DNA of 63,974 bases, filler included, from Porpidia crustulata (Eukaryota): assembly GCA_964255105.1 (NCBI GenBank). It is 3 parts of 3 records of this genome, joined end to end, with 100 filler letters (N's around TTAATTAATTAA, not from the genome) between each part and the next. Parts side by side here need not be neighbours in the genome. Positions count along the whole stretch, not along the records: positions 45,322 to 63,974 come from CAXUWE010000171.1; 2 more parts are not named here. The stretch is one strand, 5' to 3'. Of this stretch, positions 28,115 to 63,974 are shown one piece after another. The first letter of the stretch is position 1; each line of letters begins with the position of its first letter. The notes beneath the pieces were generated by a model. The model was given only the letters and a program-made list of their open reading frames with translations, had not been told where the DNA came from and did not search any database. A program made the translations under genes and the position numbers.

Positions 28115-30605
28115 CTAATCATCCTCGATATCGTCATCACTGAGCCACAGTTTCCCAACCCTAGTCTCAGTTGCTGATGTACTTCCTTTTGCCTCCTTGC
28201 TCCTGGCATTATGCCTTTTGCCCGGTACCGACTGCGCCTTCACGGCAGTTTCGCCGTTGTCATTAGAAGTATCATCTAGACCCTCACCAATGCCGTTGAA
28301 CTTGGTGATCTTCTCTAGCTCGCTGCGGCTGCTTGGAGAGATTTTAGCGAGGTACGGCAGTCTTTCGAGTATCAACTCGAGTTTCGTGGAATAGATGTTT
28401 GCTCGAAAAGGTTCATGATGATGCTGGACCATCGTTTCGGCTGCTTCTTTCAAAGCCGCCTCTGTTCCACGGCGCGCATACCACGCATCAATCAAAGCCT
28501 CGACCTCCTCCTTCTTCCTCCCAATCCTCATGCTCATCGGCCAAAACATCTTGAAAGCATCGCTTCTTGGCACACTTTTCCCGCTCGGAGATCCACTGGT
28601 CGCATGTCTCTTCACCGGGTAGGGTAACGCGAAAATCAACCCCCTAACGGCAACATGGAAGGCAAACTCGTCTTGTCTCAGAACATCCAAGCCTCGTCCA
28701 CCACCGCTGAAGCTGAAACCTTTATCTGGGCTAAGGAGATCACTGTCAGAGAGTGCGTCTATACAATCGTTGAAGGCGTCTGCGAAGAACGAGGATTCAC
28801 AGGAGAGTATGTAATTCTCGTGTAGCGCGGCAATGAAGGTGCTGATGTCGGTACCGGTCTCATTGAGTAGATCCTGTACCAACACCTGCGAGACCATTGG
28901 CCGAGAATACTTTTGCATATGCTCAGATATCTGGTTGGTTGAATGCACTACCGTAGATTCATCTCTTTTGTTATAGACGACTTTTCCTACCGCGTGGAAT
29001 ATTCCTAAACTAGCTTCCCTCTGCGTAACCATCTCCAGGGCCTGTCGCTCCATCTTTGTAAGTATAGACACACCCTTCTTCCCCTTCAAAGCAACGCGGC
29101 CGCCCCAATCATCACCATCATCAGCCCTCAAACATAAGAATTCCAAGGAGCTGATAGCATTACGCACATCACCCACCTCGCCTAGCTTTTTGAGAACCGG
29201 GGGACCAGGAACGCGTCTGCGACCGGACTGTCTGGCTTCTTTTTGGATCACTATGTCAAGCGCCTTCGTAAGTAGAGTTGTGGCGATGGGATTGAACTCG
29301 ATATTAGTGGTGCCGGGGTGGGCTAGTATGCCTGGACCAAGCAGGCGATGGGCGGTGAAACTGTCGCTCGCAGCTGTTGTGACGGATTGATTGGTTTCAG
29401 TTATGATTAGAATTATCGGCGTAGGGGAGCTAGAAAGAGATTGGGCAGTGAGGTACTGAAAAATCGACGAGCGAAAGGATTGTAGGGTTGCGGATGCGCT
29501 CGTTGAGATATTCGGAAATTCTTCAACTAGAATGACCTTATTTTTTGTGCTCGTGGATAGCAAGCTTGAAGGGAGTAAATCCGCAGACGTTCCGCCACCA
29601 GTGAGCATTAAGCTGTTAAATTTCCCGCTCCGCTCGAGGAAGTCCTCAAATTGGGTGGACACTGAGATATAGCCTTCTGAGGAGTAGTCGGAGTTATTTG
29701 GATTTCTCCATTCCGTGACCTCAAAGTCCATTGCTTTGGCCAGGGTAGATATTGTAGCAGTCTTCCCAGCCCCTGAAGGCCCTTTCAGAATCAATAGTCG
29801 CTGCGAAGACTTAGCATACGGTTATCCAAAAACGAAAGGCAAACACACAGACCTTGCGCTCTCGACCCGAGAATACTCGTTCCAGCCAACTCCTGATGCT
29901 TGCCACTTTCTTTTTATGCACCATCAGCTCTTCCAGGTGGACAGGCGCATACTTCTCCGCCCACGGCTGTAGGTCCACCTCCCTATCCTTACTTGCTGCC
30001 AGTCTCACAGAGTCCTTCTCCGTAGCTCTCGTAACTCTCAGGAATCTTTGGCTCCCGCCAGCCGGCTTGTTCAGACCTGCCGACCCAGTGCGATCTGTAC
30101 TCGGCAGGGTAGGTCCCCTTCGAGTATCAATTGTAGGAGCTTTTGCATTCTGAATCGATGAGACATGCTGTAGCTCTTCGTCCAACGAGTCATCTTCTAT
30201 CGAGTCCTCCTCTTTTCCATCTAGGGCAGGACTTGACGGCTTTGGCTGGATTTCTTTCTTGGACTGTTGTGATACAATCGCTGCGTTGAAATACGCATGG
30301 AGAGATCCTTTCTCCTCACGTCTGGGCTTGTGGGGAGGATCTTCGGAAGATGAGCTAGGGCTCGCTAGAATTGGAGAAGCAGCGGAGTGCGATTTTGGAC
30401 TTTTATTTGGCTTCGTTCGAGATCTAGTAGGAAGATCCCGGGTTGTAATAGTACCACTCCTGAAGAACGCTACATGATCCCTTGAGTTGACTCTGTTCGG
30501 GACAGGAGCGCAGGCCCGATCCTTTCCAAGCGGTTCTATATCCTCATCTCCATCTGAAAGGACAATTGTGCGTCTCTTCTGCCTCTTTGGTGGTGGTGGA
30601 GCCAT
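28115..30605 (-). CDS. RAD17: Checkpoint clamp loader Rad17/Rad24, 2 exons
   Basis: PWAEKYAP..LEELMVHKKKV, Walker A GPSGAGKT, ILVEEFP, GDVRNAISSLEF, IFHAVGKVVYNKR, acidic C-terminal LSDDDIEDD. Intron 29852-29801. Confidence 0.93.
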
Positions 30606-31021
30606 GCCATGTTGGGAGGTTGTTCGTCGATGGTCTACTCCAATTGTGTGGCGTAGCCGATTTATCAATACATGCACAGGCACTTATTACTACCGCTATT
30701 CCAGTAATCAATTTCATGCATAGAAGTTTGGAGTTTCAATTTGACTGTAGAAGACTGCGCCATTTTACGGAGTATCTAGAAATCGAGCACTAATCTACAC
30801 CCAAACTTCAAACCTCATGAGCATAGATAAGCCGCTCTGGACCCAGATCTCCTTCCCTCGTTCAACAATAGATTTTCCAGGGAATTTCTTCCAGTGACCG
30901 CCGGTTATTCCTTCCCTTTGCCCCTTGCCTCATGCCCATTGCCTCCATAGAAATCTTCCATTGGATGGCAAGACGAAGCCCACGCAAGTGATGACGACTA
31001 TTAGACGAAGTCGATACTCAA

Positions 31022-45321: not shown

Positions 45322-45586
45322 GCACCAAGCCATCAAACCATTTCCCCTTCCTCAACCCCATCGTCCAATCCCCCCGACACCCTCCACTCATCTCCCTCCC
45401 ATCCACAACCAACATCCATCCTCAAAAATCCTCCGCCACAAAAATGAACAGCCAGCCACGGCGGGGTATCACATCGCTAAAACCGCAGCACTTAAGTCGT
45501 CCCAAAAACTCATCTCCCCCGGTCGGTCCCTCGTTGCTTGTCCACTAACATCTACTAAAAAAATGTGTTTTCCATGCTCGTGAGTC

Positions 45587-48500
45587 TCAGGCGTGCGGCA
45601 CGCCGGCCGCATCGCCGAGCCATCTCCGGACGCCTTCGCGGAGACTGCTATCGGCCATGCCTCCGCGTTTCCCTTCGTTCGCGTCTCTTAGGCCCGGTTT
45701 GCCGGATTTCCCATACTCCATCTCCGCGCTGACGCTCAGAGCGACCTGTTCCAGAGCGCCTAGAACCATTTTCCGACATTCGCTCCTGGGTACTTCGAGG
45801 GAGGGGCTGTGCTCGGGGATACGGTCTCTGTTGTTGCTGTTTTGTGAGACGTTGGGGCGAGAAGGGGATGGAGCGCGGGAAGGCGCACGCGATGAGGTAC
45901 CGGATTGGGCGAGCACGCGCTCGACGGCGTCGATGAGGGTGGCGTCGAGGTCCATGATGTGGGATTCATGGATGCGTTCGATTTCGGGGTCGGTGCCGTC
46001 CTCGGTGCGTTTGCCGATGCTGCGACGTTGTAGGCAAAGGCGTGTGACGGAGAAATTGGTGGCGTCTGCTATCAATGTTGTACAAATATCGGTCCACTTT
46101 TGAGACGGCAGAGAGTCTTCTCCCAGGGAGGTAGTAGAGGTAGAGGGCTGGTAAGGCTCGGCGCGCATTGAATGTTTAATATCTTCTTTAAGTGCGGCGT
46201 AGGGTTGCACGGCTTGAAGGGAAAAGTCTTGATGGTATTTCTTTAGCCAGCCAGCAACATCGATTACGGGGTCGGATCCTGCCGATAGAGGCTCGTGGAA
46301 TGAGTGGCGAGTGTGAACAGAGGAACGATCGTTGAAGCTGCTGGCAGCCGTCTGAGAGCCTTTCGGAGAACTCAAAGATGACGCGAAAGAAGAAGAGTAG
46401 GAATTCGTCATGGGAATGTCCACGTCAACAACACCATCATTTTCGTCAATGGATAGTTTCACTGGAAATTGTTCAGGTTTCGGTCTCACGGGAATGTTCT
46501 TTGCAGATGTGGTTGATTGGTTCGATAATTGGTATTCGGTAATATTTTCTGGTGAGCCGATGAGGGTGGTTGGATGTCGCAGGCTTTGCGATGTAGGTGT
46601 GTTGCCCTCCATGGAACCTCGATTCCTCGAAGCTTCTACGTCTTCCACCATTCGAGCTAATTTATTGCTGGATCGTGCACTCCCAAAATCTTTGGGGACT
46701 CCAGAAATTCCGAGCCCCTCCTGCGACGACGCCACAGCATCACTATCATCGGTAGACGAATTCCGTCTCACACTCCAGAAACCACTGATTACGCTGCCCC
46801 ACCCTCGCGAAGACTGGGAGCCCGAGATTGCTTGTGCGCGATCATTGCTCTCAGACCGAGAAAGTGTATGTTTCAAAGACAGAGAGGCAAGGCTCCCACT
46901 ACTGCCAGGCCTCGGCTCGGCCGAAGTGCCCATCCATGGTTCTTTCGAGTAGCTGGAGAAATGAGGCACCAGTATGGGAGGTTCTGGTGTTACTGTGGCC
47001 GTCGTTGTGGTGCTACTTTTACGGGTCAACACGTTTCCTGAAGAAATCGGAAGTGGCAAAGTTCGGATAGACATGACATCAGAAATTCGTCGGCCATGCT
47101 GTAGGACCTGAGACTCCCCAGCACCATAATGCCGACCTGTAAAGCTGACAGATCTCTCATGCCTAGTATTTATTCCGCCTCGACTTGCTTTCGATCTCCG
47201 ATTGATTGACCGGCGAAGAGACTGCTGTCGAAGCATTGAGACACCGGATGGGGGCGACTGGGAGTAACCAGCATTTGATAGGGATGATGCAGGTCGAGAT
47301 ATTGCATTGTAATTATGATGACGATCATTTGGCAAGAACGCGGAGAGTAGAAAGATGAGTCTTCTAGAAGCCATCTTATCCGGAGACACAATCACAGTGC
47401 GGTGTTGAATCGTACTTATCTCTCGAAGCGAGCCGTGAAGAAGCTGAGTATGCCGACAACGATACCAGCTTGGCCCAAGAGAATCTAGCCATTCGGTGTG
47501 GCACCCGAGGAAGGCAGTTAATAGATTGAACAGGAAGAAATTCTGCTCTCTCCCTCCAGCCCATCGTCCCGCCCAACGAGCCTCTTCTCGCCACATGCCC
47601 CACCGTCCTTGACCAGCAACAACCCGTTTGATATTCAGAGCCAGCGCAACCCGATTTCCGGCGGCAGAAGCCTCTTGCTGAATATCGCTAAATTGTTGAA
47701 GTGCCCCTGGTTGAAGTTGGACCGTTCGCTGTGACGGCGGCTTTGGCTGCTTCAATTTCAAATTTGTTTGCGACCCGCCAGCCTCGTTATTTGTACCGAT
47801 CGGCATTGTTAGCGACCTCGGAAAATTTTCTGAGGCTTTTGTTAATAAATCATGGATTCTGTTTCGTGCAACTATTTCGAGAGATGATATAGCTCGCGTC
47901 AATATATTCCAATGCGCGACAACATATTCTAGATTACGCTCAGCATTATTGACACACATAACAGAGTCTAGAGGATCGTTGCACGGTAGTATGTCGATGG
48001 GTAATGTACCCAGCTTAGTGGTTTCGGGTGCCCAGACGTTAGATGTACCAGGTCGCAGACCGAGCGTCAGTGAACGCTGGTGAGTAGCTGGTAATTGTAG
48101 GACAATGGCGACTGCATAAGTAGGGGTCTTCAATCGCTTTGCCTCATCGGGTTTTTCTGAAGGTTTCGGAGGTCGTGTGCTTGGGTCTTCGATTCTTTCA
48201 TTTGCAAAGTCTGCGGAAGATGATTTCGTAGCTATCTGCTCATGGCGAAGATTCGATATGGGATCAACAGAGAATAGTCTCGTAATTAGGATGGAAGTGC
48301 TTTTGAAACGTAGTGCACATGGATCTACTTCTTCAACTATCGATTGAGAAACTAATTCATGTAAATCCTCCGCGGTGGTTGATCGCTTTAGAGGTGTACG
48401 TTTCTTTGCGAACATACGAGCATTAGCTGGCTCTGGTATTGTCGGAATAAACCCTCCACCAGCGGTGATATTAGAGGATCTAGGTGGCTTGACATGCAAT

Positions 48501-49216
48501 TTCGTACTGGAGATCAACGGTAGACCAGTGGATCCAAACATACATCCTAATAATGCTTCCGTTTCCTCTTTGTTCTCTCTTACGAGACGGCCCTGGGTGG
48601 TTTCGCCTTCACTAGTTACCTGCCTTGTGTCACATCTCTGAAGTCTGGGATTACTGAAAGCCCCTGTGGGTGTCTCAGGGGAACGAGGTAGACTTGGTGA
48701 CGCGTTTGACGATAGAGATTGAGGCATCTCTGCGAGCGAAGAATTCCGGCTGTGCCACCTCCTCGCTGCAGTACGCGAGCCATGCCTTGTCAGATCTACT
48801 GGCTTCGGCTCTTCTTGTTCGTCGCGTTGGATCGCGCCTTTCGCACTTGCTTGTTGAATGGCGGATGAAAGAGGAGGCTGAGAATCATATAAAATTCGGG
48901 GCTGCTGAGAGATTACATTGCCATCTTGCGCTATGATTACTCGGATATCCCGAGGGCTTTGTATATCCAGACCCCCCCGATCATCGGGACTGTTGGCAGC
49001 AAGAGCCGTTGATGATGACTCGGTATGCTGAAGAGGATATGTTTGGCATTGCGCTTGCCCTAAAGCGGTGACGTCTGGATACAGAAGATTGGAGGTATGG
49101 GCTTCTTCCGTCACCGATTCCAGTGGTATGTGTGGCCTTGGGGAGTGCGGAGCTGTTGAGACAGGCGTCGAATGAAACAGCCGATGTAGGCCGGAGACTG
49201 GCAGCTCCATGAACAT
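45587..49216 (-). CDS. Folliculin-interacting protein (FNIP/Lst4-like); start codon uncertain
   Basis: About 1200-aa ORF with LESVTEEAHT..LLYP, DIRVIIAQDG, LLGCMFGS, SSTKLHV, ILITRLFSV, VVAGQGRWGMWREEARW, RRLIFLLSAFLP, VAGWLKKYHQDFSLQAVQPY. Confidence 0.85.
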   Translation of the reverse strand: MFMELPVSGLHRLFHSTPVSTAPHSPRPHIPLESVTEEAHTSNLLYPDVTALGQAQCQTYPLQHTESSSTALAANSPDDRGGLDIQSPRDIRVIIAQDGNVISQQPRILYDSQPPLSSAIQQASAKGAIQRDEQEEPKPVDLTRHGSRTAARRWHSRNSSLAEMPQSLSSNASPSLPRSPETPTGAFSNPRLQRCDTRQVTSEGETTQGRLVRENKEETEALLGCMFGSTGLPLISSTKLHVKPPRSSNITAGGGFIPTIPEPANARMFAKKRTPLKRSTTAEDLHELVSQSIVEEVDPCALRFKSTSILITRLFSVDPISNLRHEQIATKSSSADFANERIEDPSTRPPKPSEKPDEAKRLKTPTYAVAIVLQLPATHQRSLTLGLRPGTSNVWAPETTKLGTLPIDILPCNDPLDSVMCVNNAERNLEYVVAHWNILTRAISSLEIVARNRIHDLLTKASENFPRSLTMPIGTNNEAGGSQTNLKLKQPKPPSQRTVQLQPGALQQFSDIQQEASAAGNRVALALNIKRVVAGQGRWGMWREEARWAGRWAGGREQNFFLFNLLTAFLGCHTEWLDSLGPSWYRCRHTQLLHGSLREISTIQHRTVIVSPDKMASRRLIFLLSAFLPNDRHHNYNAISRPASSLSNAGYSQSPPSGVSMLRQQSLRRSINRRSKASRGGINTRHERSVSFTGRHYGAGESQVLQHGRRISDVMSIRTLPLPISSGNVLTRKSSTTTTATVTPEPPILVPHFSSYSKEPWMGTSAEPRPGSSGSLASLSLKHTLSRSESNDRAQAISGSQSSRGWGSVISGFWSVRRNSSTDDSDAVASSQEGLGISGVPKDFGSARSSNKLARMVEDVEASRNRGSMEGNTPTSQSLRHPTTLIGSPENITEYQLSNQSTTSAKNIPVRPKPEQFPVKLSIDENDGVVDVDIPMTNSYSSSFASSLSSPKGSQTAASSFNDRSSVHTRHSFHEPLSAGSDPVIDVAGWLKKYHQDFSLQAVQPYAALKEDIKHSMRAEPYQPSTSTTSLGEDSLPSQKWTDICTTLIADATNFSVTRLCLQRRSIGKRTEDGTDPEIERIHESHIMDLDATLIDAVERVLAQSGTSSRAPSRAPSPSRPNVSQNSNNRDRIPEHSPSLEVPRSECRKMVLGALEQVALSVSAEMEYGKSGKPGLRDANEGKRGGMADSSLREGVRRWLGDAAGVPHA

Positions 49217-49684
49217 GGTGAAGACAAATAGGATAAGTAACCCGGCGGAATAAATCTTAGCAACATTGGCGCCAACTAGTCGCCAGCTGCACATTTATTA
49301 CGGCTGAGAGTGCCATATTCTCTTGCGATTGTGGGCTTGGAAGGCGTGCTCAGCGTTGATGCTGAAAGATGAAGATCGTGTGGGGTACAAAGGTTGAGCA
49401 GTGGCAGCGGCGGTATCTTCATGAGTTGTAGTCTTTAGAAAAGACGGTGAAAGATTCTACGCTAAACCGCCCTGTAAGGCGCAGTCACTGCATCAAAAAT
49501 TGACCCGTTGAGAATTCAAACACTCCAAAACAAAACCCAATAAGAGAACACTTAAAATATCAACACGGGTAAAATCTCATTATAATACGATATGACTAGA
49601 AACGTCTGTCTGTCTTACATAGATAAATCTTATATCACGGATTGTAGTTCAGTCAATGGCTACGCTTCGAGAGGTCCTGAGATA

Positions 49685-52600
49685 TCAGCTTTGTATGCCT
49701 AGTTTTGCTCGCAACTGTTGGACACCTTGTTTGAGATCCTTGACAGGTTCAGACCAGTTGATCGCTATAAGTCCCTTTCCTTCCGCAGTGGCCACCAGTA
49801 CGACAGCATCAGCAGCAGTATTTCGAATCTATCATGTGAGAAATTAGTAATCGTTCTGTCAAAGCCTGCCAGAGGAAAGCGCTCAGACCAACCTTTGGGA
49901 ATGGATGTAAGAGCAAGGAACACAACTGAGCAAGTGCCTCTTTCCTCGCAGCACCCACAGTGGCGAGCCCAGAGTAGATTTTGACAGCCGCTTCTAATTT
50001 GCGGACATTGCTAGATCTATAGTGGGTCTTATGAATTACATTGAGCAGCTTGGGCCACCTTGGAAGAATCAGCGTCGTTCCTTTAGTAAAAGGTCAGCGT
50101 GACTCACGGGAAGCCATATGGTTCAAGACATTGCATGACTCCAACATCGAAAAGAAACCCGAGTGTGTCTAGCGCAGGAGCGAGAAGCCTGTCAGTGAGG
50201 ACGTTCTCATGAACGATGTTCACGAGAGACTGGCAGAGATTAAGAAGCTCATCTTGGTCAAGGTCCTCGCTATAATGTATCAGGGCTGCTCGAGATGACC
50301 AAAGCAGCGATTCCGACCCGGCACCGGCTGAGGTGAGATAGCCTTTAAGGAGAGGCGTTCTGACCCAGTCGAGAGAGCACAACGATAGTAGTTGGCGAAA
50401 GTATGTCTCTGTTGATGTGTCCGAGATATCTAAAAGTTCTCTATAGATGTATTAATTAGCCAATGCCGAGGATGGCCTTGTCCTCGAATCTTACGACAAT
50501 GGCCTGGTTTGGTCTCCAAAGACAGCCCAGTGGTCCCTCAAAATGGACCATGCTCGGAACCTGACTTTGTCAAGTTTCTCACAGGCGAGACCGCAAATTC
50601 TGGATACCAGATCTTGTATTACTTCTTGATCTCTTAGAAGACCATGCTTCAGTGCTACGCTAACGGCATCAATGGCTTCCATCCGGACCATAGATCCTAC
50701 ATCCCCTCGCCGGTCGGTGGTGTAATCATTGAGACAAAGCCTGAGCGCAGTTGTTATAGAAACGGTCGTCACTAATATTTATCAGTTCGTAAACTCCTGT
50801 AAGCATGCCTCTTTGTTCGTACCATTGCCTCGAAGAATTCCAGAAGCTAAACTGCGAATGGCGGCAACTCGTGATTCAATCTCAACCCCTGGGCCAGTTT
50901 GGGATAATAGGCTATTTACGACAGTCTGCTGGATTTCTGTCAGAATATCTGGATCGTCTGCAAGGAAGTGGTGAAAAACAAGGCCGAGGGCTGCAATGAC
51001 CCCGAAAGCCTTGGCTCCACCACGCGATTTGTTCGAATTATCCCGACCGAGTATACCCACCCATTCGTGAACCAGAATCTCTCGCTCACTGTCGTTGAGA
51101 AGGCTAAATAAGTTGTCGGCAGCATTGGCAGACATCGTCACCACGATATCTTCTGCACGATTTAAACACAGATTCAAAATGTCCGTGCACCTTGAGATCT
51201 CTGTACTAGTTGGGTACGGTGAACTTAGTTGAGGCATATCTGTCAAGTTAGACCCAGAGAAGCGAGCAAGTACTGAGAGAAAGGCACACGAAGCTTCTGC
51301 AATCAAATCTGGCTTAGTACCCAACAATGCTTGCCCATCTTTGAATAGGGGCGATTGAGGATCGAATAACTTCCACAAGGCTACTATTGATGTCAACGCC
51401 CGCACTTCTAGGCTCTTTTTCTCGAGTAAAGCTTCACGAATAATGGCCGCCAAGGCGAGAAGCAAGCCATGCCGCTCCTCGACTTGACGCATTGGGGTTC
51501 TTCTCAATATGTCACACACTTTTGCCAAGGCCACAGGAATATTACCTGTACCGCGACACACGGCCAGGGACCCAATCGCTAATGCAGACAGACGACGAGT
51601 TGGCGCATCTGGCGATCCTAAGCCTCTCCACTTCAGCACACCGTCTAAGATACTCTCCCAGTACAGAGGATCTAATATCGATGCGTCTATGGCTACTTCC
51701 TGTACTGCTCTCGACCGTAGCGCCACAGCGTGGTAGTCTACGACCTGCACGAGCGAGATACCCTCGACTATCACATCAGGGTGACGGCCTATCAGTTCTT
51801 GTAAAGCGGCTGATGCACCTCGGCGAATGTTACCGGACAGGTCCAACGTTGCTGCAACTATTATCTCATTAGCCAAAGCTTGTAGTACTGTAGTAAGATG
51901 CTCATGGCTGTTGGCCGCTTCAACCATAGACGCATCGATCATGCACAGTTCCTCCGAGTTGTATCGCCTCGCTAGTGCCCATATACCGAAGCATGCTGCA
52001 TCTCGGACGTTCGTGCCAATGGACCCGCCGACAGAAGATCGTTGCTCAAAGCGAAGCGCAAGTATCAAAGCATTCAATATACTCGGTAATTGTTCTGGCG
52101 GCGGTGAACGTCGGTAGAGGAGATGGGATAAGGTCAGAATAAGCCCGTGCCATCTTAGAGCATCAACAGCCGTTACATTACGCTTAAGCGGACCCAGGAT
52201 AGACTGTTGCGCAGCACCATTAGCAAGGACTTGGCCAGTCGAAATATCTTCCCACAACATGTTCTCCTCTAGGCTCCCAACAATCGCATCGACCACCTCT
52301 GCGGCCATTGCTGATTCTAGTCTTACGACAACGACGCTTAGTGCCTTGCTTGCTGCGTACCTGACTGGGGTATCCTTGTCGGCCAGGCTGTTAAGTAGGT
52401 GCTCAATCACTTCTTCTAATACATCCGAAGGTAAATCGGGAAATTTGGAAATTGTGTTTGCAGGGTCGAAAGAAATCGTTGAGATCGTTATTGCTCGGAG
52501 GATTTTAATGATTGATTTCCGTGCAAGCGCCGATGAATTTATCATATTTGAAGATTGACTTTGAGCGCTGGTGATGCGCTGTACGATTTGAAATATTTTA

Positions 52601-53591
52601 CCAAGGAATGGGCCTATTGTTTCTTTCCTAGCTGAAGTGACTACACCGCTGAGAAATGATAGAACACCAATATGAGCGTATATCGTCTTCGGAGGGGCAT
52701 CACTGGGCTGAAAATCCAGAGACAAAAGTGCCCAGCGGATAAGAGAGGAGGGTAGATCAAGAGCAAGCATATCTGGTCGCAGAACTAAACGGACAAGAAG
52801 AAAATGCGCTGCTTCACGCTCTTTGCTGGCAGATCCTATGTATTTCAGAGATAGAGCAATTACACGTTTCGCGATAGTAGGAGCGTTTTGGGGCAAGGAT
52901 ACTTGCAAAGCCGCTTCGTCGGCTTCAATGATTGTAGTTGACGAAATAGAAGACAAATCAAAAGGCGTCAACATAAGATGTGACAGCCAAAGAAGCATGA
53001 TGTATCGCTCTTCCCATACCATAGGTCCATAATCAAAAGAAGGCCCATCCGCCCTATTTTCGAACGGCTTCTTCCATGCCCCAAACGCATTAAGCATCGG
53101 CTCGAGGTATTTAGGTTCGTTGGCCATAAATTGGCATATGACCTTCTCTCCCCGAATCTTGCAAAGAGTATAAAGTATTTTGCAAACTGCTCTTGGCAGC
53201 GGATACAGCCATGGCGAAATTTCACGAATGGTAGATCGATAGCGCTTGGCATGATTGCACATATAAGCCAGAAAGGCGGAGACAAGAATTTGGAGCAAAT
53301 TGCTTAATCTAGGATCCAGCAATTGTGGCCACTCCTGGAAAGGCTCCAACTTTGATGGCCAGAATATTAGAACTGCCTAGTTTCTAAAAAATACCACGTG
53401 GGACTTACCAGAAGTGTTAGGCTATGAGCTTTAGGAGCCTTGACCAGCTTACGTACGACGTCCCCAGGCAGTATAGCCTCTGTATTGAGTGACGATTTCC
53501 ATAATAACCGGGGCAGGGAGACTTCAAACTCAGCGAGACGGCTAGCTGACGTTCGCTGAAGCTTGATCTCACTGTCATCTGAGACGTCCAT
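49685..53591 (-). CDS. Tubulin-folding cofactor D (TBCD/Alp1/Cin1), multi-exon
   Basis: EPFQEWPQLLDP, WEERYIMLLWLSHLMLTPFDL, DKDTPVRYAASK, GTNVRDAACFGIWALARRY, IRRGASAALQELIGRH, LNDYTTDRRGDVGSMVR, LLLHPFPKIR; stop at 49685-49687. Confidence 0.93.
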
Positions 53592-54249
53592 TGCAGAAGG
53601 TCGAGATGGAACGGCTGGTCTGTGTATGAGCTATTGAGAAGTTGGGACGTGATATTGCTCAAGGCGACCGTCTTAAATCCTCGCGACTTTCATATAAGCA
53701 GGTAGGCATTTTAGACTGTGTTAGACAGCGCGGCAATTGCCATGGAACGCGTCAATGTAGGTACTAGATCCAGATGCTACTGTCACCTTTGATGCATCGT
53801 TGGTTTGTCCATTCGACTAAGCCCAAGCAGATATAATAATTTCGAAATGTCCTTCTTGCTCCCCCCCACAGAATCATTACTGACTAGTGTCGTTGATTGA
53901 TTAGATAAGGACTGTGTACGTAAGCTGGAAAACTTGGACAGAGCTCGATGATTGGATCGCGGTAGGACAATCTGGAAGGCTGAGAGCTCTTGAAGTCTTA
54001 TCGTCGAGGCTACTGATGTCGAACGTTCATGCTGCTTTCATCCGATGTTATGTACAAGGACGTCAAATGTTCGAAGCACTCAAATCCTTCGAAATCAACA
54101 GCAGATCAACAACAGAAGAACGTTTTACAAAGGATACTCATAACGGTGTCAAGCTTGGGACTTGGAACGTGCACTAGAGACCAGTCTCGATTTTGCTTGA
54201 CACATCTCCGAGGAATCAAGGCCATCCCGCCCCGACCTCCGTCCAATCG

Positions 54250-56984
54250 ATGGCCGATGAAACCTTGGTCGATGAGGCTGAACAACGCATTTTATTTGGG
54301 ACGAATGAATCTAACGGCTCCCCTCATGGCCAAACAAAGCCTACCAAGGCAAAGTCGCGTCAAAGGGAGAAGGAATCGGTTGCCTCGGCCAAGAGGCGGT
54401 GCGTTAGTACTGCTTGTATAGCATGTAGGAGAAGAAAGTCAAAGGTGTGCCATATACTCCAGTCACTGAGGGAGTAGAAATTTAATGTATAATACTGCAA
54501 TGCGCTGACACGAAGCTTTGGAATCAGTGCGATGGGAACACACCAAGCTGCGCAGCCTGTGCGTCCGTCTACGGTACAGAGTGTGTTTATGATCCAAATT
54601 CCGACCACCGGCGTAAAGGGGTGTACAAAAAGGACATTGATAACCTAAAAACGCGCAATTCGACGTTACAGACTCTGATTCAAGCTGTTCTCAATTACCC
54701 CGAGCATGAAGTACCAGACTTGGTGAAGCAAATAAGGACATGCGAGAGCTTGGATGATGTCGCCGAATCCATAATGACTAAGGACAACGGTCTTGAGGAC
54801 GACCGAGAAGATGATGAGTCCCCCCTTACGGAGAATGGGCCGCTTACCGGCGTGCCGAAGTTTGAAGCTGAATTATCCGGAAAGATGGGGGAGTTGCGTT
54901 TAGATAATGGCTCTGTTAGCTTCGTTGGAGGGACCTCGAATCTCATCTTCCTCGGATCAGAGTCGGACGACGAAGATTCAGGGTCAAATGACGAGGTGGA
55001 GCAATACCAGCAACTGGCGGACCCCATCACTTCTTGGACAGAGGTGACTGCGGATCCTGATCTCGTTAAACATCTGCTTAGCATGTACTTTACATGGCAC
55101 TACACGTACTTTACCACCCTGTCCAAAAGCTTGTTCTATCGCGACTTTCTTCTTGGAAAGCCACCACCAAGCACCAAACGCAAGACCGAATACTGCACTG
55201 AGTTACTAGTAAATGCCATGCTAGCTCTGGGTTGTCACTTCACATCATGGCCGTTGGCTAGGGACGATCCACAGGACTCCGCCACAGCGGGTGACCATTT
55301 CTTCAAAGAGGCCAAGCGATTAATTCTAGTCAATGACGAGCACGAGCATCCAAGGCTCGCAACGGTCCAAGCACTAGCATTGATGTCAGTGCGAGAAGCC
55401 GGGTGTGGCCGAGAAGCAAGAGGATGGGTCTACAGTGGAATGAGTTTTCGTATGGCATATGATCTTGGGCTTAACGTCGATTCCAGTTCTACAAGTCTCG
55501 AGGAGCAAGAGGTGGATGCTCGAAGGATCACAATGTGGGGATGCTTTTTATTTGATAAGTATGCTTGAATGATCATTTTGCTTGAGCATAAATTTACCGA
55601 TCTTAGGTGTTGGTCGAACTATCTCGGGCGGCAACCGCAGCTGCCGCTATCCAGCATAGCGGTGCCAAAGATTGATGTTTTCCCTATGGAGGATGCTAAT
55701 ATTTGGTCACCTTACACGGATGTGGGAGTCGGTCAGGCGCATTCCCAACCATCGAGGACGCGCGCTGTGGCATTGCAAATCTCCCAACTTTGCGAGATTA
55801 GTAGCGATCTACTGCTATACTTTTATCACCCAACTCATTTGGAGAAGCCAATCGGCAAGCAGGCAGAACTGAAGAAATTGGGCGAGCTACACACCAGGCT
55901 AGAGGCTTGGCGGAAGAATTTACCTAAAGAGATGGAACCGAAGGAGGGCCAATTGCCTCACGTGCTAGTCATGCAGTCAGTATTATTTTACCTGAAGTCC
56001 TTGTTGATTGACTGACCTTGACATAGTATGTTCTTTCAATTGCTGTTCATTCATCTTTTTCGCCCCTTCCTCAAGTATAAACAAGCTAATTCCCCCTTAC
56101 CCGCACACGTATCACCTCGGAAATTTTGTACCCACGCTGCCGCCATGATTTCTAAACTCCTTCGTTTGTACAAGCGGACCCACGGCTTGCGACAGATCTG
56201 TAATATTGCGGTTTACATCGCGCATTCCGCATGCACCATTCACTTGCTGAACCTGCCCGAAAAGAATGCCATTAGAGACATTGTCCATGGATTGAAACAT
56301 TTGGAGGAGATTGCTGAAGGCTGGCTCTGTGCTCGAAGAACACTTGCTATACTGCATATTTTAGCGCGTCGTTGGCAAATAGAACTACCAGAGGAGGCTG
56401 CAAAGGTTTTGGCCCGCACGGACGCCAAATTTGGCCCGCTCAAGTCTCATGACCAGCAATCACCGAAGTCTGAGGCCTACTCACCTCCACCTCAGGTACA
56501 AAGGGAGCCTGTACAACAGAACATACAGAACACCAACGCCTCGTTTGCCATACCTACGAACGGTTTTTACGCAGGCGCTGGTATGATGAATGCCACTCCT
56601 ACAGCGGAGATTCATCAACCCAACGGGCTAGCGGCTGCTCCTGTCCGATCGACCGTTGACTACAACCGGAAGCCGCGGCAGCAAGCCTTCATTCTGCCTC
56701 AGGTGCAGCAAGAGCTATGGAATCAGGATCGCGCTTCACGGGGCGCGGCGGCTCAGACTTCGCCTTCGATATTGTTCGGAGGCGTCCCTGCGTTAATGGA
56801 CGATAGCCACGAGTGGTGGTACAAAGATTCACAAGGATTGATCTCAAATTGGAACGGAATGGACCAAGAATCAGCCATGATGGGGAACCGAGCTAGCAAC
56901 AATGACATGAATTCCGCCGATTACGCCCATTCCTATGCTTTCTCTGGGGATCCCAACTCGACTTCTCCCAACGGCTTGCTCTGA
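54250..56984 (+). CDS. nirA: Zn2Cys6 nitrate-assimilation transcription factor NirA/Nit-4, 4 exons
   Basis: KRRCVSTACIACRRRKSK|CDGNTPSCAACASVYGTECVYDPNSDHRRKGVY, a fungal TF middle domain, and LYKRTHGLRQICNIAVYIAHSACTIHLLNLP. Confidence 0.93.
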
Positions 56985-57568
56985 GGCCGACATCCTCTGC
57001 TGATGGCAATAATGATCTGATGATTGGGAGCTCCAGCACGATAGATTCAGGATAGGAAATACGGCTCGCCGGATAAGGATGGGAATTGGGAAAGGACGGC
57101 CGGCATTGTGACGGTGCCGTGTTCGGCGGGATATTTCATGAGATTACGAATGATATAGGGTTTATCTAAGAGTTTTAGATGTATCGATAACGACAATGTA
57201 TTTTCAGGCTCGTGCGCAAGTTGTCCCTACCAATGAAGTGAGCAGACGAGAGTGGTCTTTAGCGGTCTTGAGCTCTTTGAAAGTCAAATGGCTCAATGGA
57301 TTAGGCGAGTTTGGTATTTCTAGAAAATGGCGCTAGTCGAGACACTGTCAGCCTCTCTAATCCAACGAAAAGAAACGTGCTTGTTATTGATAATAAACCC
57401 CTTCCATGTATTAAGTGGGGGCTCCAATTTGCATGATCAGTTACTCCTTATTTATCGCAGAGGAACTGTCGATGAATTGTTATCGTCAGGAAAGACGCCT
57501 TTCAAGTCCATGGGCAAACGATCTGAGAGTCCCCCACCAACTTCGAGCGGCCAGCAGTCTTGACAGCT

Positions 57569-58416
57569 ATGTCGTCTACAGTAGGCGCTAAATGCGACCA
57601 GATCATAAGGGGAGCGAGCTAACAATGAGACTTGACCTGCAGGACCCGAATAATCTCAATCGAATCAGGAACAATCAGCGCAGATCAAGAGCCCGCCGGA
57701 AAGAGTATTTGCAGGAACTGGAAGAAAAACTTCGGAAATGTGAGATCATGGGCGTTGAGGCCTCAATGGAAATCCAAGCATCTGCTAGGCTTGTAGCTGA
57801 GGAAAACAAGCGGTTGCGAGCACTTCTACAGTCGCGAGGTATTATGGGCCACGACATCGATGCTGCGCTTGGGATGTCAGGCGCTGGCGTTAATGCCCCA
57901 CAAAGTACTGAGATGCTCGAGGCGAAACTTAACACAAAGAAGCCATGCGTTGATAGAGAGTGTAACAAAGGCTGCTCTCCACCACAACCAGGCACGCTGA
58001 GTCTTACATCGACAACTTCAGCAGTTCGAGGGAGCACCTACAAGCGACCCGTGGCCTTGATGCCGTTGACGACAGTGCTCACGAACCCTTCGTCGCTACC
58101 GACAAGTCCTGCTTTGAGAAACCGACTGAGTAGTAGCTCTCTGACAAGTAATTCTATAGCAACACCTGCATTTTCCTCCACCGAACCATCTTTACCGTTT
58201 GGAAATCATTACAACCACGCATCTCCCGACCTTAGCGCTGAAATTTCCTTGGGTAACGATACCTCCTCATGTACCTTCGCTGCCAGTATTATCGCAACTA
58301 TGAGAGCAGATGTCAGCGCTGAAGATGTCAAGGCTGATTTAGGCTGTGGTAAAGATGCCGAATGCAAGATCGATAATGCTACTTTCTTCACAGCAATGGA
58401 CCGGTACACTGCCTGA
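57569..58416 (+). CDS. bZIP-like transcription factor, 2 exons
   Basis: Mini exon MSST (57569-57580), intron GTAGGC..GCTAAC..CAG (57581-57642), then RIRNNQRRSRARRKEYLQELEEKLR...GVEASMEIQASARLVAEENKRLRALL and a Cys-containing C-terminus. Confidence 0.85.
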
Positions 58417-58800
58417 TTCTGCATTTCACCATTAGATGAGCTGGGCGACCTTTTCTTCTGCTACGCATAGATAGCGTTTGTCTTGATCAATAATTCTTGC
58501 TTGGACAGAAAAATTTCTTTGTTCGACTTAAACAGACCTCGCCTGACCTTATTGAGAGTGCTATAAGTCTGCCCATCATTACCACAATGCTTTGTTCTTT
58601 CTTGTTGATAGTCAGACCGTTCGCGGAAATTGAGAAGGCCCAAAGAGCAGACATGGCTCGTTTGGAGGTTTTCGCCTTGTTGTGGATCCATGAAGCTTTG
58701 AGTATTTTCTTACGAAGTTATTGCTGCCATGACACATCAAGCACGGTAGTCTCAAACCCCCCTGTGATATTTGCCTTCTCCGATTGTTCTTGCGGCACCA

Positions 58801-61800
58801 ATGGCTCCAAAATTGACGCTGAAGCATAAGGGAGTAGCCAACCGTATAGAGGCTCCGGCGAAAAGCCCAGATGAGGGGCCCTCGATTCCAGAAACTGAAC
58901 AAGCACGTACATTACTGTGGCAATCAAAAAGTGCAACATCGACCATTGCTAAAACGCCCCGTGCGAAATCGCCGGTTTCTACTGGCAGGCGATTACTCTC
59001 CAATCCCAAGCCTCCCAAGGATAAGATATCATCATGTGGAATTTACGAATCATCCTTTCCGGATTGGAATACGTCGACACTGCCGAGACATCTCCAAACC
59101 TACCATCTTTTACAGGAAGCATTGATTCCTTCACCAACAATCTCGCACACGCTGACAACAAAATGGGTCAAACTGGATGACGCGCGAAAGGCTGCATGGG
59201 CTCGAGTTATCGCGAATACGTCTAGCGGAATCTGCACACTGTACAATTATATCCGCAAGAACGAAATGGAGGTTGATCAGCTCCTTTTTAGTCGAGAACT
59301 ACTGTCGAAGTGTCCACGGGGTTTTATATGCAGCCTTAACAAGGAAGATGCCACGGGTCAATTTAAAGATTCTATGGATTCGAGGCCCGAGAGCGAGACC
59401 GAATCGTTGCCGGAGCTTAGGAGGAAGTAGGTCGAAGGTGACCATGTTCTTCCTCTGTGAGTTCTTCAACGGGTATACTGCTCCACGTAGATTCACATCT
59501 TTCTAATGTTGATCTCAGGGATCCCCAGGCAGGCGGCGAGCATTGGCAGAAAGCTGCAAACGGACAAGCGCTTTCCAGTGTCCACAAATGCTTGGAATTT
59601 CGCCGTCTTAATGTTATTAACGAGGATCACTATGGATTTTTCATTGCTAATGGCACTTTAGCTCCGCTTTCCATTAACGGCGTTTTAACTGGTCTGAATA
59701 CGGTGGCTGGACCCCTGCCAGACTTTGCAGTAATCGAGGCCGAGGATTTTGTGTTCTTTTGGTGGTGTACTGGCAAGGGGGTCAAACACTTACCCGATGA
59801 TTTGCCTCTAGCGAATGTGCGTATTGTCCAAAGGTGGCTCACTGTTCTGACAGCTTTGGTAGGAAGGTTGGAGTGAACCTGGTGGCTCGAAGAGATCGCA
59901 CGAAGTAGCTGATGGGTATGAGAATCCCCATGATGAAGCACCAGTTGTCAAAAAAGCGAAGCTCGATGACGGTTTGTAATTCCGATTCACGAGTCTCTTT
60001 AAGATGGCTGATAATGTTTAGGCGAAGGAAGACTTACTCGGTCCCGTTTGAAGGTTTCTCGAACAAAGATTATCTTGAGGCCTCCACAACAAAGTCTCAC
60101 AGAACAATCAAACAATGCAGATACATCTAAGCCAGAAACGGATCAAACTCTAGCTACTGTGAAGACTGCTCCACGCCTGGGTAAATATTATATTGACGTT
60201 GAAACCAACAGTTCTAGTGCTTTACCGACGACTTGGATAGCAGATTACAAAAGCCGCTTGGATGCAGGCAATGCAAACGCTCAGCGGATAAATAGGGGGA
60301 ACGATTATTTAGGAGTGTCCCATCAGCTCACGGCCTCGAAAGTCCTATATGAAAATGACGTTTTCCTCCCAATAGCTGCCAGTTGGTACGGGTTGGTGAA
60401 ACGGGATGTCCACTTTGCTTTTGGCGGCAAACGTCTATTCGAGTGGGCGCAATTCGATGACAGCCATGGAATGACATGCGTGCTGTCTCCAAATGCATTC
60501 ATTATACCCCTTGTCTTCAATGCAGATATGACAGATCTACCCGGAAAGACGTCAGGACAAGGGAAAAGGCCTGCAAAAAGCACCAGTAAAGGTCGGGGTA
60601 AGCAGAGTCAGGAGAATTCCAAGAAAGCCAAGACTACTACAAAAACAAATCTACCCGGTGAAGGATCTCCTAGACCTTCGAAAGTAGCCCAGCCAAGAAA
60701 ATGCAATCATGGTATAATAGCCATTGCTAAGTATGCCGATGAGCCTCAGAGCAATCAATCCTTAAGTCTGACATTTATGGATTCACAATCAAATCCAAAG
60801 AACTACGACCGATTCAGCAAAGCAGCGAAGAATATCTTCCGTTATTCGAAATGGGTCAAACATTGGCCAGCGTGTACTGATGAAAATTGGGCAATAGTCC
60901 CTCAGCAAGGACGTTCCAATTCGACACCTGTCGCCTCCGGTGTTCATGTCGTACTAAATGCCTGGGCTTACATGCTCGATATACCTTTGGCTCCTAGTGC
61001 GAGGCTCGACAAAAACTTCTATACTGAGGCTCGGAAACTGATGCGGCTAGCCCTTAAGGGATGCCTAGATAGCGAAACAATTCGAGCCTTCCTGCAAGCT
61101 TACAAGTATGTTATACCGCAAGACCTAGCAGAGATTCGACACAGAGAGGAGGAGAGTTCAGCCTTGGTAGACAGCTTCCGTCACATGCAAAGTGAGTATA
61201 TGAATGATGAGATCTTTAATGAGATCATAGACCAAATTCACAGAGATGAATCTCCAAGTGGCGCAAATGAAGCAGACAATACAAGTTCTGGAGATAGAGG
61301 GAACTCCCGTGACTCAGATGGGGATCTTTCTGATAGGATTCCTCCACTTAGAGTGACTAGTGGACTAGGGAGCGACCCTTCGTTGCAGGATATCAAATTT
61401 GGGAGGCCAGGGTCAAGCCAACCACTTTCTAGTGCGGACTTACCGCAACCCGAAGTAAGACTTGCAGATATAGGTGGGGGTCAATTGGGACCAGAGAGTG
61501 ACCCACTAACAACTAATGTGCCACAGTCTGAGGCAAAAATACCATCGTCGAAATCATGGGACAACATTTTGATAGATGGGTTACAACGCTACTGGGATCG
61601 CTATCACGACCGAATATGCGGCATGATAGGACTTATGCCAAAATCGATCCGGACACCACCAATGGTTGGCATGATGATCCTGTTTTCCTTGCCATCGCTT
61701 CATTGTGGCAGGGTCTGCGTATAAAGGGGGTGGCTTTTGGTTACAGCATGCCGGCCACCTTTTATGGGGCCCGCCCCCAGAATACCATAATTCCAGGCGA

Positions 61801-63974
61801 GACTGTTGTCCATGGGCCACGACCCCTGATTATGCCGCTCTTGTTCAGCCCAGACGAAATGGCTTCATATCTGGGTGACCAACGCCCATTTTCGGACGAA
61901 ATGGTTGAAACCCATGGTGAAGGTGCTGAATTGGAGACCAAGGGCGCCAAAAGCCAGGATCGGTTCTATAAACGCAAACATGCTCAAGACCTAGGAGTAC
62001 TCCTCGGTCATTTCATCCTAGCCATAGCTAGAAAAACCAATGATGACATTATTCAGATCTCTATAATGAATAGCAGTGTGAAGCACATCGCAAAAGCAGC
62101 TGTTTCCAAGACAGTGCGCAGCCTTGTCACCAACAAAGGTTGGCTGGGCATTGATCAAGGAGGAGTTCAAAATTTGCCGAGGACCGTTTTCTTGACGTTC
62201 TGACGCAGAGACTTGGGAATACCTGTGGGATATATGTTGTTCTCAATGCTTGGGCATATATGCTGAATATTCCAATCCGAATAGAGAGATTTCTTGGCCA
62301 ACATCGATGGTTTCCTCACCATAAGTTCCATGAAAATGCTGCGCTTATATTCGATATGGCCGTGGAAGGATTCATGGATTCTTCGACTATCCAAGCTTTC
62401 CTGAATGTGTGGGGGTACGCGGAGGATCAAGATGTGAATGATCCACAAGTACATGTCCAACGAGTGGATACTGCAGAGATGGATTTGGACACGCTTGCCA
62501 CGATTGTGAACGATGAACGTGCTCTTGAAAGAATTGCGTTGGGAGTCCTACCAACGCCAGAAATTCCATACGAGCCATCGGAAGAAGACGTTACTAAGTT
62601 GATGCGAATGGGTTGGACAAGAGAAAGTGTAACCCATGCCTTGATTCGAATGCGTGGTCTCTTGCAACCTGCTATCACGATTCTTCTGGAACAAAGTAAC
62701 ACAGCTAGTCCGTCTACGCAGAGAAGTATACAACGTTCACCACCTGGATCCTGGCCTGACCACTCCTACGACGACATTGACCTTACCCTCGTGGCAAGCA
62801 TCAGCAATAGATCCTACAACACTGCGGTTCTGGCAATGGCTGAGGCTGGTGGAGAGGTCGAACTCGCCAAGGATATTGTATCTCAATATAGTGCATCTCA
62901 CAGTAACTCGCCTCCCTCTCCACCATCGCCTGATACGCAGCCTAGCTCCAGGCACTCGGTGAATAATCAAGGATCATCTACTTCAGGGTCATCGCCTTCT
63001 CAGCCCGGCGGACAGACTAGGACTAGGATATCGTCAAGTAGTTCAGCTCTGGACATATCGCAGGAGGAGCTGAACGCACATCTAGAAATATATCAGTGGT
63101 CGGAAGATCAATTCAGGGCTGAAATGGCCAAGCATCACGGAGATGGCAAGGCCCTGTTTGAAGAGGTTAAGATAAGGCTAGCAAGAAATACCGAAGCTGC
63201 AGGAGTTGCTGAAAATTCTGGGGGAATTGGAGCGTCTCAGGTCCAGGAGCAGCAGAGACGGGTTGAAGACACTGAAGATGAGGCGTTGACCGCATCCAAA
63301 GTCTTGAAACTCAAAATAAGGCTGATCCTAGCCAAAGATTCTAAACCCATACAGAAGCTAACCCCTGCCGAAGAATTTGACGAAGACCCGGAAGCGCTTT
63401 TCGCCTCTGACGCTGAGGATTTGGTTAATCCGGAAGAAACCCCTCGAAAACTAGGCGCTGATGATAAATGAACAAAATACTCTCGCGGATCAATTAACGA
63501 AGCCTACGAATTGGCCAGCTCCAATTGAGAATCCCGAGGTCGATACCAATTTCATCGTCGAGCGTACACAAACTCAAGCTCGAGCCCCCAGATCCGAAGA
63601 AACGCTACCCCTGGCGGTAGAAAACGCACCCGCGGACTAGTTGCTTTCAAATGACAGCCACCTAATCCACCGCTCCGATCCCGATCCTGCCATCAGGCAA
63701 AACCCCCCACGAGCTCCAGCCCCCAGCCAAGAACAAGACCAACCCCCATTCCCCAACTCCTCAACCAACAACACCGCCAAACCTTCCGAAATCACCTCCA
63801 TCAGCAACACTGTCGACATCGCCAAACTCCCTCTCCTCCCCATTGCAAGCCCCTAGCGCTTTCAAACGCATCACTCTGTCGAACGTGTCGGGTGTCCGGA
63901 AATGCTGGATCAAGCGATGGATTATGCGGGGGAGGATATTGGGACGCTGACTGCTATTGGGCATTCGAGAGAGG
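58801..63974 (+). pseudogene. Disrupted multidomain gene: FHA-like + 2 Ulp1-like (clan CE) protease domains + UBA-like repeats
   Basis: Introns 59427-59518, 59817-59862 and 59972-60021 join the first ORFs in frame. A duplicated domain carries VFL.IA..W.GL, H.I.AIA, M[DN]S, Q..[SC]G..VVLNAWAYML.IP and G..DS.TI.AFL. Frameshifts occur at about 61612, 62172 and 63467, and TAG stops at 63638 and 63854. Confidence 0.72.

Follow-up and report, generated by a model that had tools for sequence, protein, structure and literature searches.

The window analysed here is a 63,974-nucleotide stretch of Porpidia crustulata DNA (assembly GCA_964255105.1), made of three parts joined end to end, the last of which (positions 45,322 to 63,974) comes from CAXUWE010000171.1. 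In this last part, on the plus strand, sequence comparison confirms a predicted multi-exon gene, a single gene that combines an FHA-like module, two Ulp-like folds and a UBA domain. We are highly confident that it belongs to an uncharacterised, Pezizomycotina-specific family of multi-domain ubiquitin-like-protein proteases with this architecture. Judged from the sequences of its members, the family is a new architecture on a known kind of protease, and the copy in the window appears to be a broken member of it.

Gene model and its disruption in the window

The first-pass annotation had joined six plus-strand open reading frames (ORFs) into one gene, and all six are found in a stop-to-stop ORF listing: ORF A (58768-59430, frame 1), ORF B (59442-59876, frame 0), a short frame-1 ORF (59863-59977), ORF C (60015-61724, frame 0, 569 amino acids), ORF D (61532-62203, frame 2, 223 amino acids) and ORF E (62155-63471, frame 1, 438 amino acids). 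The three introns proposed to connect them are indeed compatible in phase, and exons 1-4, when joined, are open for 911 codons up to a stop at 61722-24. That the ORFs are parts of one gene is upheld by a counterpart locus, L001, where the gene reads as a single frame. The features of the gene, all on the plus strand, are as follows.

ATG at 58801, 3' end beyond the window, +: whole gene, with three introns and two frameshifts
58801-59426, +: exon 1, start codon and N-terminal region, with an M-A-P-K start and IPSP and GF(I/L)C motifs
59427-59518, +: predicted intron 1, 92 nucleotides, GTAGGT...CTAAT...CAG, phase 2
59519-59816, +: exon 2, conserved FHA-like beta module with the core FF.N....INGV....AGPLPDFAVIE....FWW
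59817-59862, +: predicted intron 2, 46 nucleotides, GTGCGT...CTGAC...TAG, phase 0
59863-59971, +: exon 3, short acidic/basic linker, G-Y-E-N...K-K-A-K
59972-60021, +: intron 3, 50 nucleotides, phase 1, GTTTGT...CTGAT...TAG, predicted solely on signals and phase
60022-60293, +: first part of exon 4, basic linker ahead of domain 1, probably disordered, frame 0 open
60294-61124, +: Ulp-like domain 1, predicted clan CE fold and putative pseudo-protease (His 60708-10, Asp 60780-82, Gln 60906-08, Ser 60936-38)
61125-61604, +: inter-domain linker, frame 0, ending in a conserved S-W-..-I-L-..-G-L that precedes domain 2
61605-61630, +: zone of frameshift 1, frame 0 to frame 2, where orthologues stay in one frame
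61655-62149, +: N-terminal half of Ulp-like domain 2, frame 2, 92.5 bits with the family profile (His 62009-11, Asn 62069-71 in the Asp position)
62160-62175, +: zone of frameshift 2, frame 2 to frame 1, where orthologues stay in one frame
62167-62433, +: C-terminal half of Ulp-like domain 2, frame 1, 88.1 bits with the family profile (Gln 62206-08, catalytic Cys 62224-26)
62569-62697, +: predicted UBA domain 1, Pfam-matched stretch 62578-62658
62764-62889, +: second helical segment, UBA-like by position only, aligning to '...ERAGGNIAKAEE...' of the relatives P0007 and P0008
63049-63189, +: third conserved helical segment, ...Y-Q-W-S-E-D-Q..., with a weak match to the P0008 tail
63469-63471, +: frame-1 stop codon at the end of ORF E, from the ORF listing
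63472-63895, +: sequence that separates the frame-1 stop from the terminal UBA-like piece, in which no clean intron was found
63896-63974, +: start of the terminal UBA-like segment, frame 2, cut by the window end

L001 is one of two metagenome loci (the other is L002) that a pattern search of metagenome contigs with a conserved nine-residue motif returned. It lies on the minus strand of its contig and is syntenic with the window, with a bZIP neighbour (69% amino acid identity) and an upstream ORF (77%) followed by the gene. Joined, its exons 5165-4534, 4443-4146 and 4097-3 give an open frame of 1675 codons, and the protein P0008 corresponds to the final exon of the gene, the call starting at an internal Met. 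Introns 1 and 2 of the window stand at positions homologous to the L001 introns. At intron 1 the acceptor context is the same, and intron 2 is homologous to a 48-nucleotide L001 intron (GTCCGT...CTAAT...CAG) with the common acceptor context TTCT.A..GCTTTGG.AG. Exon 1 is 38% identical to L001 exon 1 over 198 aligned residues, with the M-A-P-K start common to both, and also aligns with the N-terminal regions of the relatives P0154, P0157 and P0159. Exon 3 is 45% identical to the start of L001 exon 3 over 33 amino acids, and its E-N-F-N-D...K-R motif is also found in P0157. The basic cluster in this linker, K-K-A-K in the window and K-R-P-K in L001, may resemble a nuclear localisation signal. Direct connection of ORF B to ORF C by one intron was enumerated and gave only poor signal pairs; it was the L001 comparison that exposed the small frame-1 exon 3 and thus explained the join. 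The tblastn alignment of exon 4 to P0007 and P0008 begins at 60195-60213, and over the inter-domain linker these matches run in frame 3 up to 61604.

The introns in the window are predictions from sequence signals and the L001 comparison, and two observations join this in weighing against the model. Intron 3, the removal of which brings back frame 0 without a stop, is without a counterpart in L001, which reads through there, and L001 intron 1 requires a GC donor. As a side observation, the intron-1 homologue at L001 4533-4444 (minus strand) fits a GC-AG intron with the donor GCGTAT, and a GT donor two bases on gives the wrong phase.

We also noted that amino acid identity between the gene and L001 is 38-58% by segment, far below that of the two upstream genes (69-77%) in the same genome pair. 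The one directly upstream is bZIP-like (window 57592-58416, plus strand; L001 5568-6467, minus strand), with the motif N-N-Q-R-R-S-R-A-R-R-K-E-Y-L..., and Pfam gave nothing significant for it at E<=1.

The two frameshifts reported in the first pass are real in that L001, P0007 and P0008 keep one frame across both places, and since L001 reads the same gene through, they are specific to this genome. With P0007 and P0008 as queries, tblastn follows frame 3 to 61604; its frame-2 matches begin at about 61577/61670 and end at 62164-62170, and frame 1 takes over from 62158/62173. An intron at frameshift 1 was ruled out by the absence of GT from 61582-61664. A 44-nucleotide GT..AG candidate at 62167-62210 was likewise rejected for frameshift 2, where the frame-1 homology of P0007 starts at 62173, inside it.

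The gene extends past the window end and its 3' part is disordered in this genome. The terminal UBA-like piece lies 425 nucleotides past the frame-1 stop and in a different frame; it shares 44% identity over 25 amino acids with the UBA-like C-terminus of P0007 (E 0.05) and is matched by P0008 too. For an intron from ORF E to this piece we found 24 stop-free GT/GC..AG joins, all with poor donors. Frame 2 over 63455-63974 was considered as decayed coding sequence; its two stops are matched by 739 of 5000 shuffles and are hence no evidence.

Translation from the ATG at 58801 would end at 61722-24, ahead of domain 2, which would leave only the FHA-like part and the dead CE domain in this genome. 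Broken as it is by the frameshifts, the gene copy is most likely non-functional, going by its sequence, and we think that the locus is probably a recently inactivated pseudogene. What speaks against inactivation is that the three frames are open for 569, 223 and 438 codons, with no nonsense mutation in conserved parts, so the lesions must be very recent or else errors. It is conceivable, although in our view unlikely, that the gene is intact and functional in the organism; errors of sequencing or assembly, or a minor haplotype, would then account for the frameshifts and the odd 3' end. Frameshift 2 adjoins an A4/T3 run (the A4 at 62169), as might be expected of an error, whereas frameshift 1 has no homopolymer of four or more in the surrounding sequence. 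A separate Logan k-mer assembly of run X1 equals the window over 58700-63703 with no difference or indel; its word depth is merely 11.7, and the run, of unrecorded read type, is possibly the assembly's own source and so is not independent proof. Elsewhere in the window, long ORFs of 874, 864 and 1235 amino acids, which code for ordinary housekeeping proteins, are unbroken, and around frameshift 2 the window is about six residues shorter than P0007, a difference that a single-base error would not give.

A second alternative, that exons 1-2 form an N-terminal FHA-like gene and that a separate Ulp-like gene with its own start lies downstream, is very improbable. The ORF-based calls P0154 (293 amino acids), P0007 and P0008 each contain one part only, as this would predict, and a short ATG-initiated ORF does run from 59909 onward. 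ORF C, however, has no ATG ahead of domain 1, and both the phase compatibility of the three introns and the one joined frame of L001 speak for a single gene. In P0075 the exon-2 module and a protease domain lie in one uninterrupted ORF. The NCBI single-gene models P0157 (1149 amino acids, Hypocenomyce scalaris) and P0159 (1538 amino acids, Toensbergia leucococca) have the module N-terminal of two or three Ulp-like domains, and in 33 of 149 relatives a single chain holds both the module and Ulp-like domains. The three-part layout of the window gene recurs in L002.

The repeated domain and its catalytic residues

The first pass had reported that one domain occurs twice, and this holds. ORF C and ORF E share 28 of 70 aligned residues (E 5e-13) in an alignment that takes in the quoted cores VHVVLNAWAYMLDIP / IYVVLNAWAYMLNIP and GCLDSETIRAFL / GFMDSSTIQAFL (the VLNAWAYML cores), and ORF C and ORF D share 21 of 62 (E 2e-6). 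By the family hidden Markov model (HMM), copy 1 spans 60294-61124 and copy 2 is made up of 61655-62149 and 62167-62433, near where the first pass had put them. The C-terminal half of domain 2 is 46% identical to P0007 over 192 amino acids (E 2e-51). Comparison at the DNA level detected no repeat between the two copies, and the duplication is therefore old.

The proposed assignment of the tandem to clan CE (Ulp1/SENP-like) is supported by fold comparison and by Pfam matches in relatives. We modelled copy 1 with AlphaFold2 from a 15-sequence alignment (mean predicted local distance difference test score 70.6, predicted template modelling score 0.71). Foldseek with this model gave three matches at E<=1e-3, with SENP5 (E 2.1e-4) and Ulp2 (E 3.8e-4) on top, and Ulp1, NEDP1, NopD and XopD came next. 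An Ulp1-type alpha/beta protease fold is thus predicted for the repeated domain, which on this model is a clan CE (Ulp1/SENP) fold. In profile searches against PDB sequences, the top matches of the family profile were RickCE, which aligned at the His/Asp motif with E 0.068, and Ulp2 with E 0.46, at V-P-Q-Q...C-G-V-H-V-I-L-N; a broader profile had Ulp2 (E 0.011) and a Chaetomium Ulp1-like protease (E 0.025) on top.

Against the assignment, Pfam gave no Peptidase_C48 match at E<=1 for ORFs C, D and E or for five close relatives; a borderline UBA was all that Pfam reported for the window ORFs and these relatives. The gathering score of Peptidase_C48 (PF02902, 20.7 bits) is passed by eight of 79 other relatives, seven among 26 long ones and one among 53 closer ones, the latter being P0010 with 23.3 bits. 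In P0069 the Pfam C48 stretch (924-1034) falls within the stretch matched by the window domain (924-1073).

Both copies show the residues in the order His...Asp/Asn...Gln...Cys/Ser-Gly. The catalytic columns are HMM positions 139, 163, 205 and 215, and 255 domain instances in the family span all four. H-D-Q-C is found in 149 of these, H-N-Q-C in 24 and H-D-Q-S in another 24, and H-[DN]-Q-C family-wide in 173/255. Copy 1 of the window reads H-D-Q-S, as in P0007, and lacks the full set of His, Asp/Asn, Gln and Cys, with Ser in place of Cys; copy 1 of P0008 reads Y-D-Q-S and has lost the His also. Copy 2 reads H-N-Q-C, like copy 2 of P0008, and is split by the two frameshifts. The description of the gene as a double protease is therefore not supported, given that Ser replaces the catalytic Cys of copy 1 in the orthologues too. 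From these residues, the tandem is probably a pseudo-protease followed by a probable protease. As a side observation, among 301 instances with both the Gln and the Cys column covered, 41 carry Ser at the position of the nucleophile Cys.

The same pattern extends across the multi-domain members (drawn from proteins P0002-P0164). In 61 two-domain proteins the canonical H-[DN]-Q-C is found in 28 first domains and 53 second domains, and across all multi-domain proteins 66/78 last domains have the canonical set, compared with 44/105 non-last ones. We built a FastTree phylogeny of 88 domain cores from proteins with at least two cores (ids up to P0048, plus P0157 and P0159), leaving out single-core and more distant proteins. 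One clade of 41 tips consists entirely of non-last domains (support 0.89), and another of 33 tips entirely of last domains. This separation of first and last domains argues that the duplication is old and the tandem arrangement ancestral.

FHA-like and UBA-like segments

Exon 2 is the most conserved part of the gene, with 58% identity to L001 compared with 38-45% elsewhere. An HMM of the module matches 44 of 170 proteins, including the 33 of 149 non-self relatives, which had been found by the protease domain alone. In the 36 matched proteins where both positions are seen, giant Dothideomycete proteins among them, the module is N-terminal of the protease-matched stretch. The first pass had called exon 2 FHA-like. 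What survives of this is a conserved module fused to Ulp-like domains, for which fold searches with a low-confidence model returned mostly FHA domains; what does not is any profile match to FHA. Pfam FHA (PF00498) matched none of the window ORFs at E<=1 and none of nine relatives at E<=5, no FHA protein appeared at E<=10 in three profile searches against PDB (A2, A4, A5), and the ESM Atlas gave no usable match for P0154 or exon 2.

FHA domains bind phosphothreonine through residues in Gly-Arg, Ser-x-x-His and Asn-Gly loops. In a seven-sequence alignment of the module, with the FHA loops mapped by eye, only the N-G turn is invariant, and the S-S-V-H of the window is absent from the module sequences of L001, L002, P0154 and P0157. 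With no FHA profile match and no conservation of Ser-x-x-His-like residues in relatives, the earlier suggestion of a phospho-reader is not supported.

Of the UBA-like bundles that had been placed at the C-terminus, one is retained. The Pfam UBA profile (PF00627, gathering score 22.4 bits) matches residues 142-168 of ORF E with 21.3 bits (E 2.4e-4), just under the cut-off, and this stretch aligns to a segment of P0007 that is itself a Pfam UBA match (24.2 bits). P0008 has a 45.7-bit UBA at the equivalent place directly after domain 2, and tblastn pairs the window stretch with the second UBA-like segment of P0008. Among 53 further relatives, seven have UBA-type matches at E<=1e-3, four of them above the cut-off. 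The C-terminal positions of the broad profile match archaeal MTH177 (E 0.014) and the N-terminus of USP25 (E 0.066) in PDB. For the other bundles, the helical segments at 62764-62889 and 63049-63189, Pfam has no match at E<=1; the third segment is 36% identical to the P0008 tail over 22 amino acids (E 0.23).

The family, its setting and its possible roles

A full HMMER scan with copy 1 gave 227 cluster representatives at E<=1e-3, a number that falls to 95 at E<=1e-10 and to 36 at E<=1e-30. The family comprises at least 227 clusters at 50% identity. The closest relatives are P0007 (1183 amino acids, 43%) and P0008 (1331 amino acids, 41%). Many relatives are ORF-level calls on fungal contigs that are cut at introns, and the counts of one to six CE domains per chain are thus lower bounds. 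Members include the proteins of the Lecanoromycete Hypocenomyce scalaris and of Toensbergia leucococca, as well as proteins of Byssothecium circinans (Dothideomycetes) and Plenodomus lingam that are named 'Ubiquitin-like protease family profile domain-containing protein'. All named members are hypothetical or automatically named, in line with the earlier proposal of a lineage-specific family. One member, P0027 (884 amino acids), shows a different accessory architecture, with an Ulp-like domain and OGFr_N (PF04664, 77.3 bits, residues 352-461).

Literature searches turned up no account of fungal proteins in which tandem Ulp/C48 domains are combined with UBA or FHA. The 'tandem Ulp1' of PMC10779208 refers to neighbouring Ulp1 paralogue genes on Colletotrichum minichromosomes, which is a different architecture. 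According to PMC4961225, the CE proteases of eukaryotes are single-domain enzymes specific for SUMO or NEDD8, and bacterial CE proteases have been adapted to ubiquitin and given accessory domains.

Compared with Ulp1, SENP1-3, SENP5 and NEDP1/SENP8 (MEROPS C48, PF02902), the family shows only 9-15% sequence identity, and the window domains are without a Pfam match. Directly after the catalytic His, where Ulp1/SENP have a highly conserved Trp, the family has Phe or Gly. Its chains hold two to six domains, of which the upstream ones have decayed, together with an additional FHA-like module and UBA domains. By both sequence and Foldseek, Ulp2 (5lnb) is the best or second-best match. Ulp2, SENP6 and SENP7 are also long proteins with large non-catalytic regions, and we infer a similar preference for polymeric substrates. 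They have one catalytic domain, use SUMO-interacting motifs and are not known to rely on UBA domains or a dead second protease fold. RickCE, SseL, XopD and NopD, CE-clan deubiquitinases and mixed Ub/Ubl proteases, are secreted bacterial effectors with a single CE domain, whereas the gene described here is fungal and chromosomal, has introns and shows conserved synteny. USP5, USP13 and USP25 likewise combine a protease with UBA-type ubiquitin-binding modules, but they have the clan CA USP fold and their protease part is not homologous.

Ulp1-like domains are carried by some plant and other transposons. That the Ulp-like domains here are transposable-element cargo is hardly credible: the family is large and fast-evolving (identity to L001 is 38-58%, that of the neighbouring genes 69-77%) with a copy number of one to six domains, as cargo might be, but the locus is syntenic in the window and L001, single-copy within the 64 kb, without flanking terminal or direct repeats and set among housekeeping genes, and Pfam scans of 79 relatives found no transposase domain. 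The lone repeat in the gene is a 24-nucleotide inverted match, 79% complementary, between 59048-59071 (exon 1) and 62268-62291 (domain 2), and is probably due to chance.

The remainder of the window between 6963 and 56981 is an ordinary gene-dense fungal region, including amidohydrolase, Sds3-like and SET genes and the following.

15430-16809: HAK-type K+ transporter
22810-25431, -: AMP deaminase
28118-30683, -: Rad17/Rad24, with an intron of about 55 nucleotides
45590-49294, -: FNIP-like gene
50785-53376, -: tubulin chaperone D
54486-55565: Fungal_trans factor

For intact orthologues we tentatively suggest, as a possibility that we hold at somewhat less than even, a division of labour between the domains. 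The last CE domain would act as an isopeptidase for the removal of a ubiquitin-like modifier, be it SUMO, NEDD8 or ubiquitin, and the dead upstream CE fold would serve as a non-cutting modifier-binding module, either a reader or a substrate clamp. The UBA domains would bind ubiquitin and so might favour chains or mixed SUMO-ubiquitin conjugates, while the FHA-like module and the acidic/basic linker could recruit the enzyme to nuclear targets. A further step, that intact members form a new eukaryotic CE enzyme class aimed at ubiquitin or hybrid SUMO-ubiquitin chains, strikes us as rather improbable. If true, it would break the rule that eukaryotic CE proteases work on SUMO or NEDD8 only, as that rule is given in PMC4961225, and the family would be a self-contained chain-editing machine limited to filamentous ascomycetes. 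In such a machine the dead Ulp fold would recognise one modifier and the live one would do the cutting, with ubiquitin recognised by the UBA domains and targeting left to a degenerate FHA-like module.

For annotation, the copy in this genome merits a flag as disrupted, and the wider lesson is that ORF-level protein calls such as P0007, P0008 and P0154 cut the gene at its introns. For biochemistry, the natural replacement of Cys by Ser, which recurs in this CE fold, may merit study. With members in Lecanoromycetes and Dothideomycetes and catalytic residues kept mainly in the last fold, the family appears to be a natural series of enzyme/pseudo-enzyme pairs within single polypeptides, and it offers a candidate for ubiquitin or mixed-chain editing by a eukaryotic CE fold.

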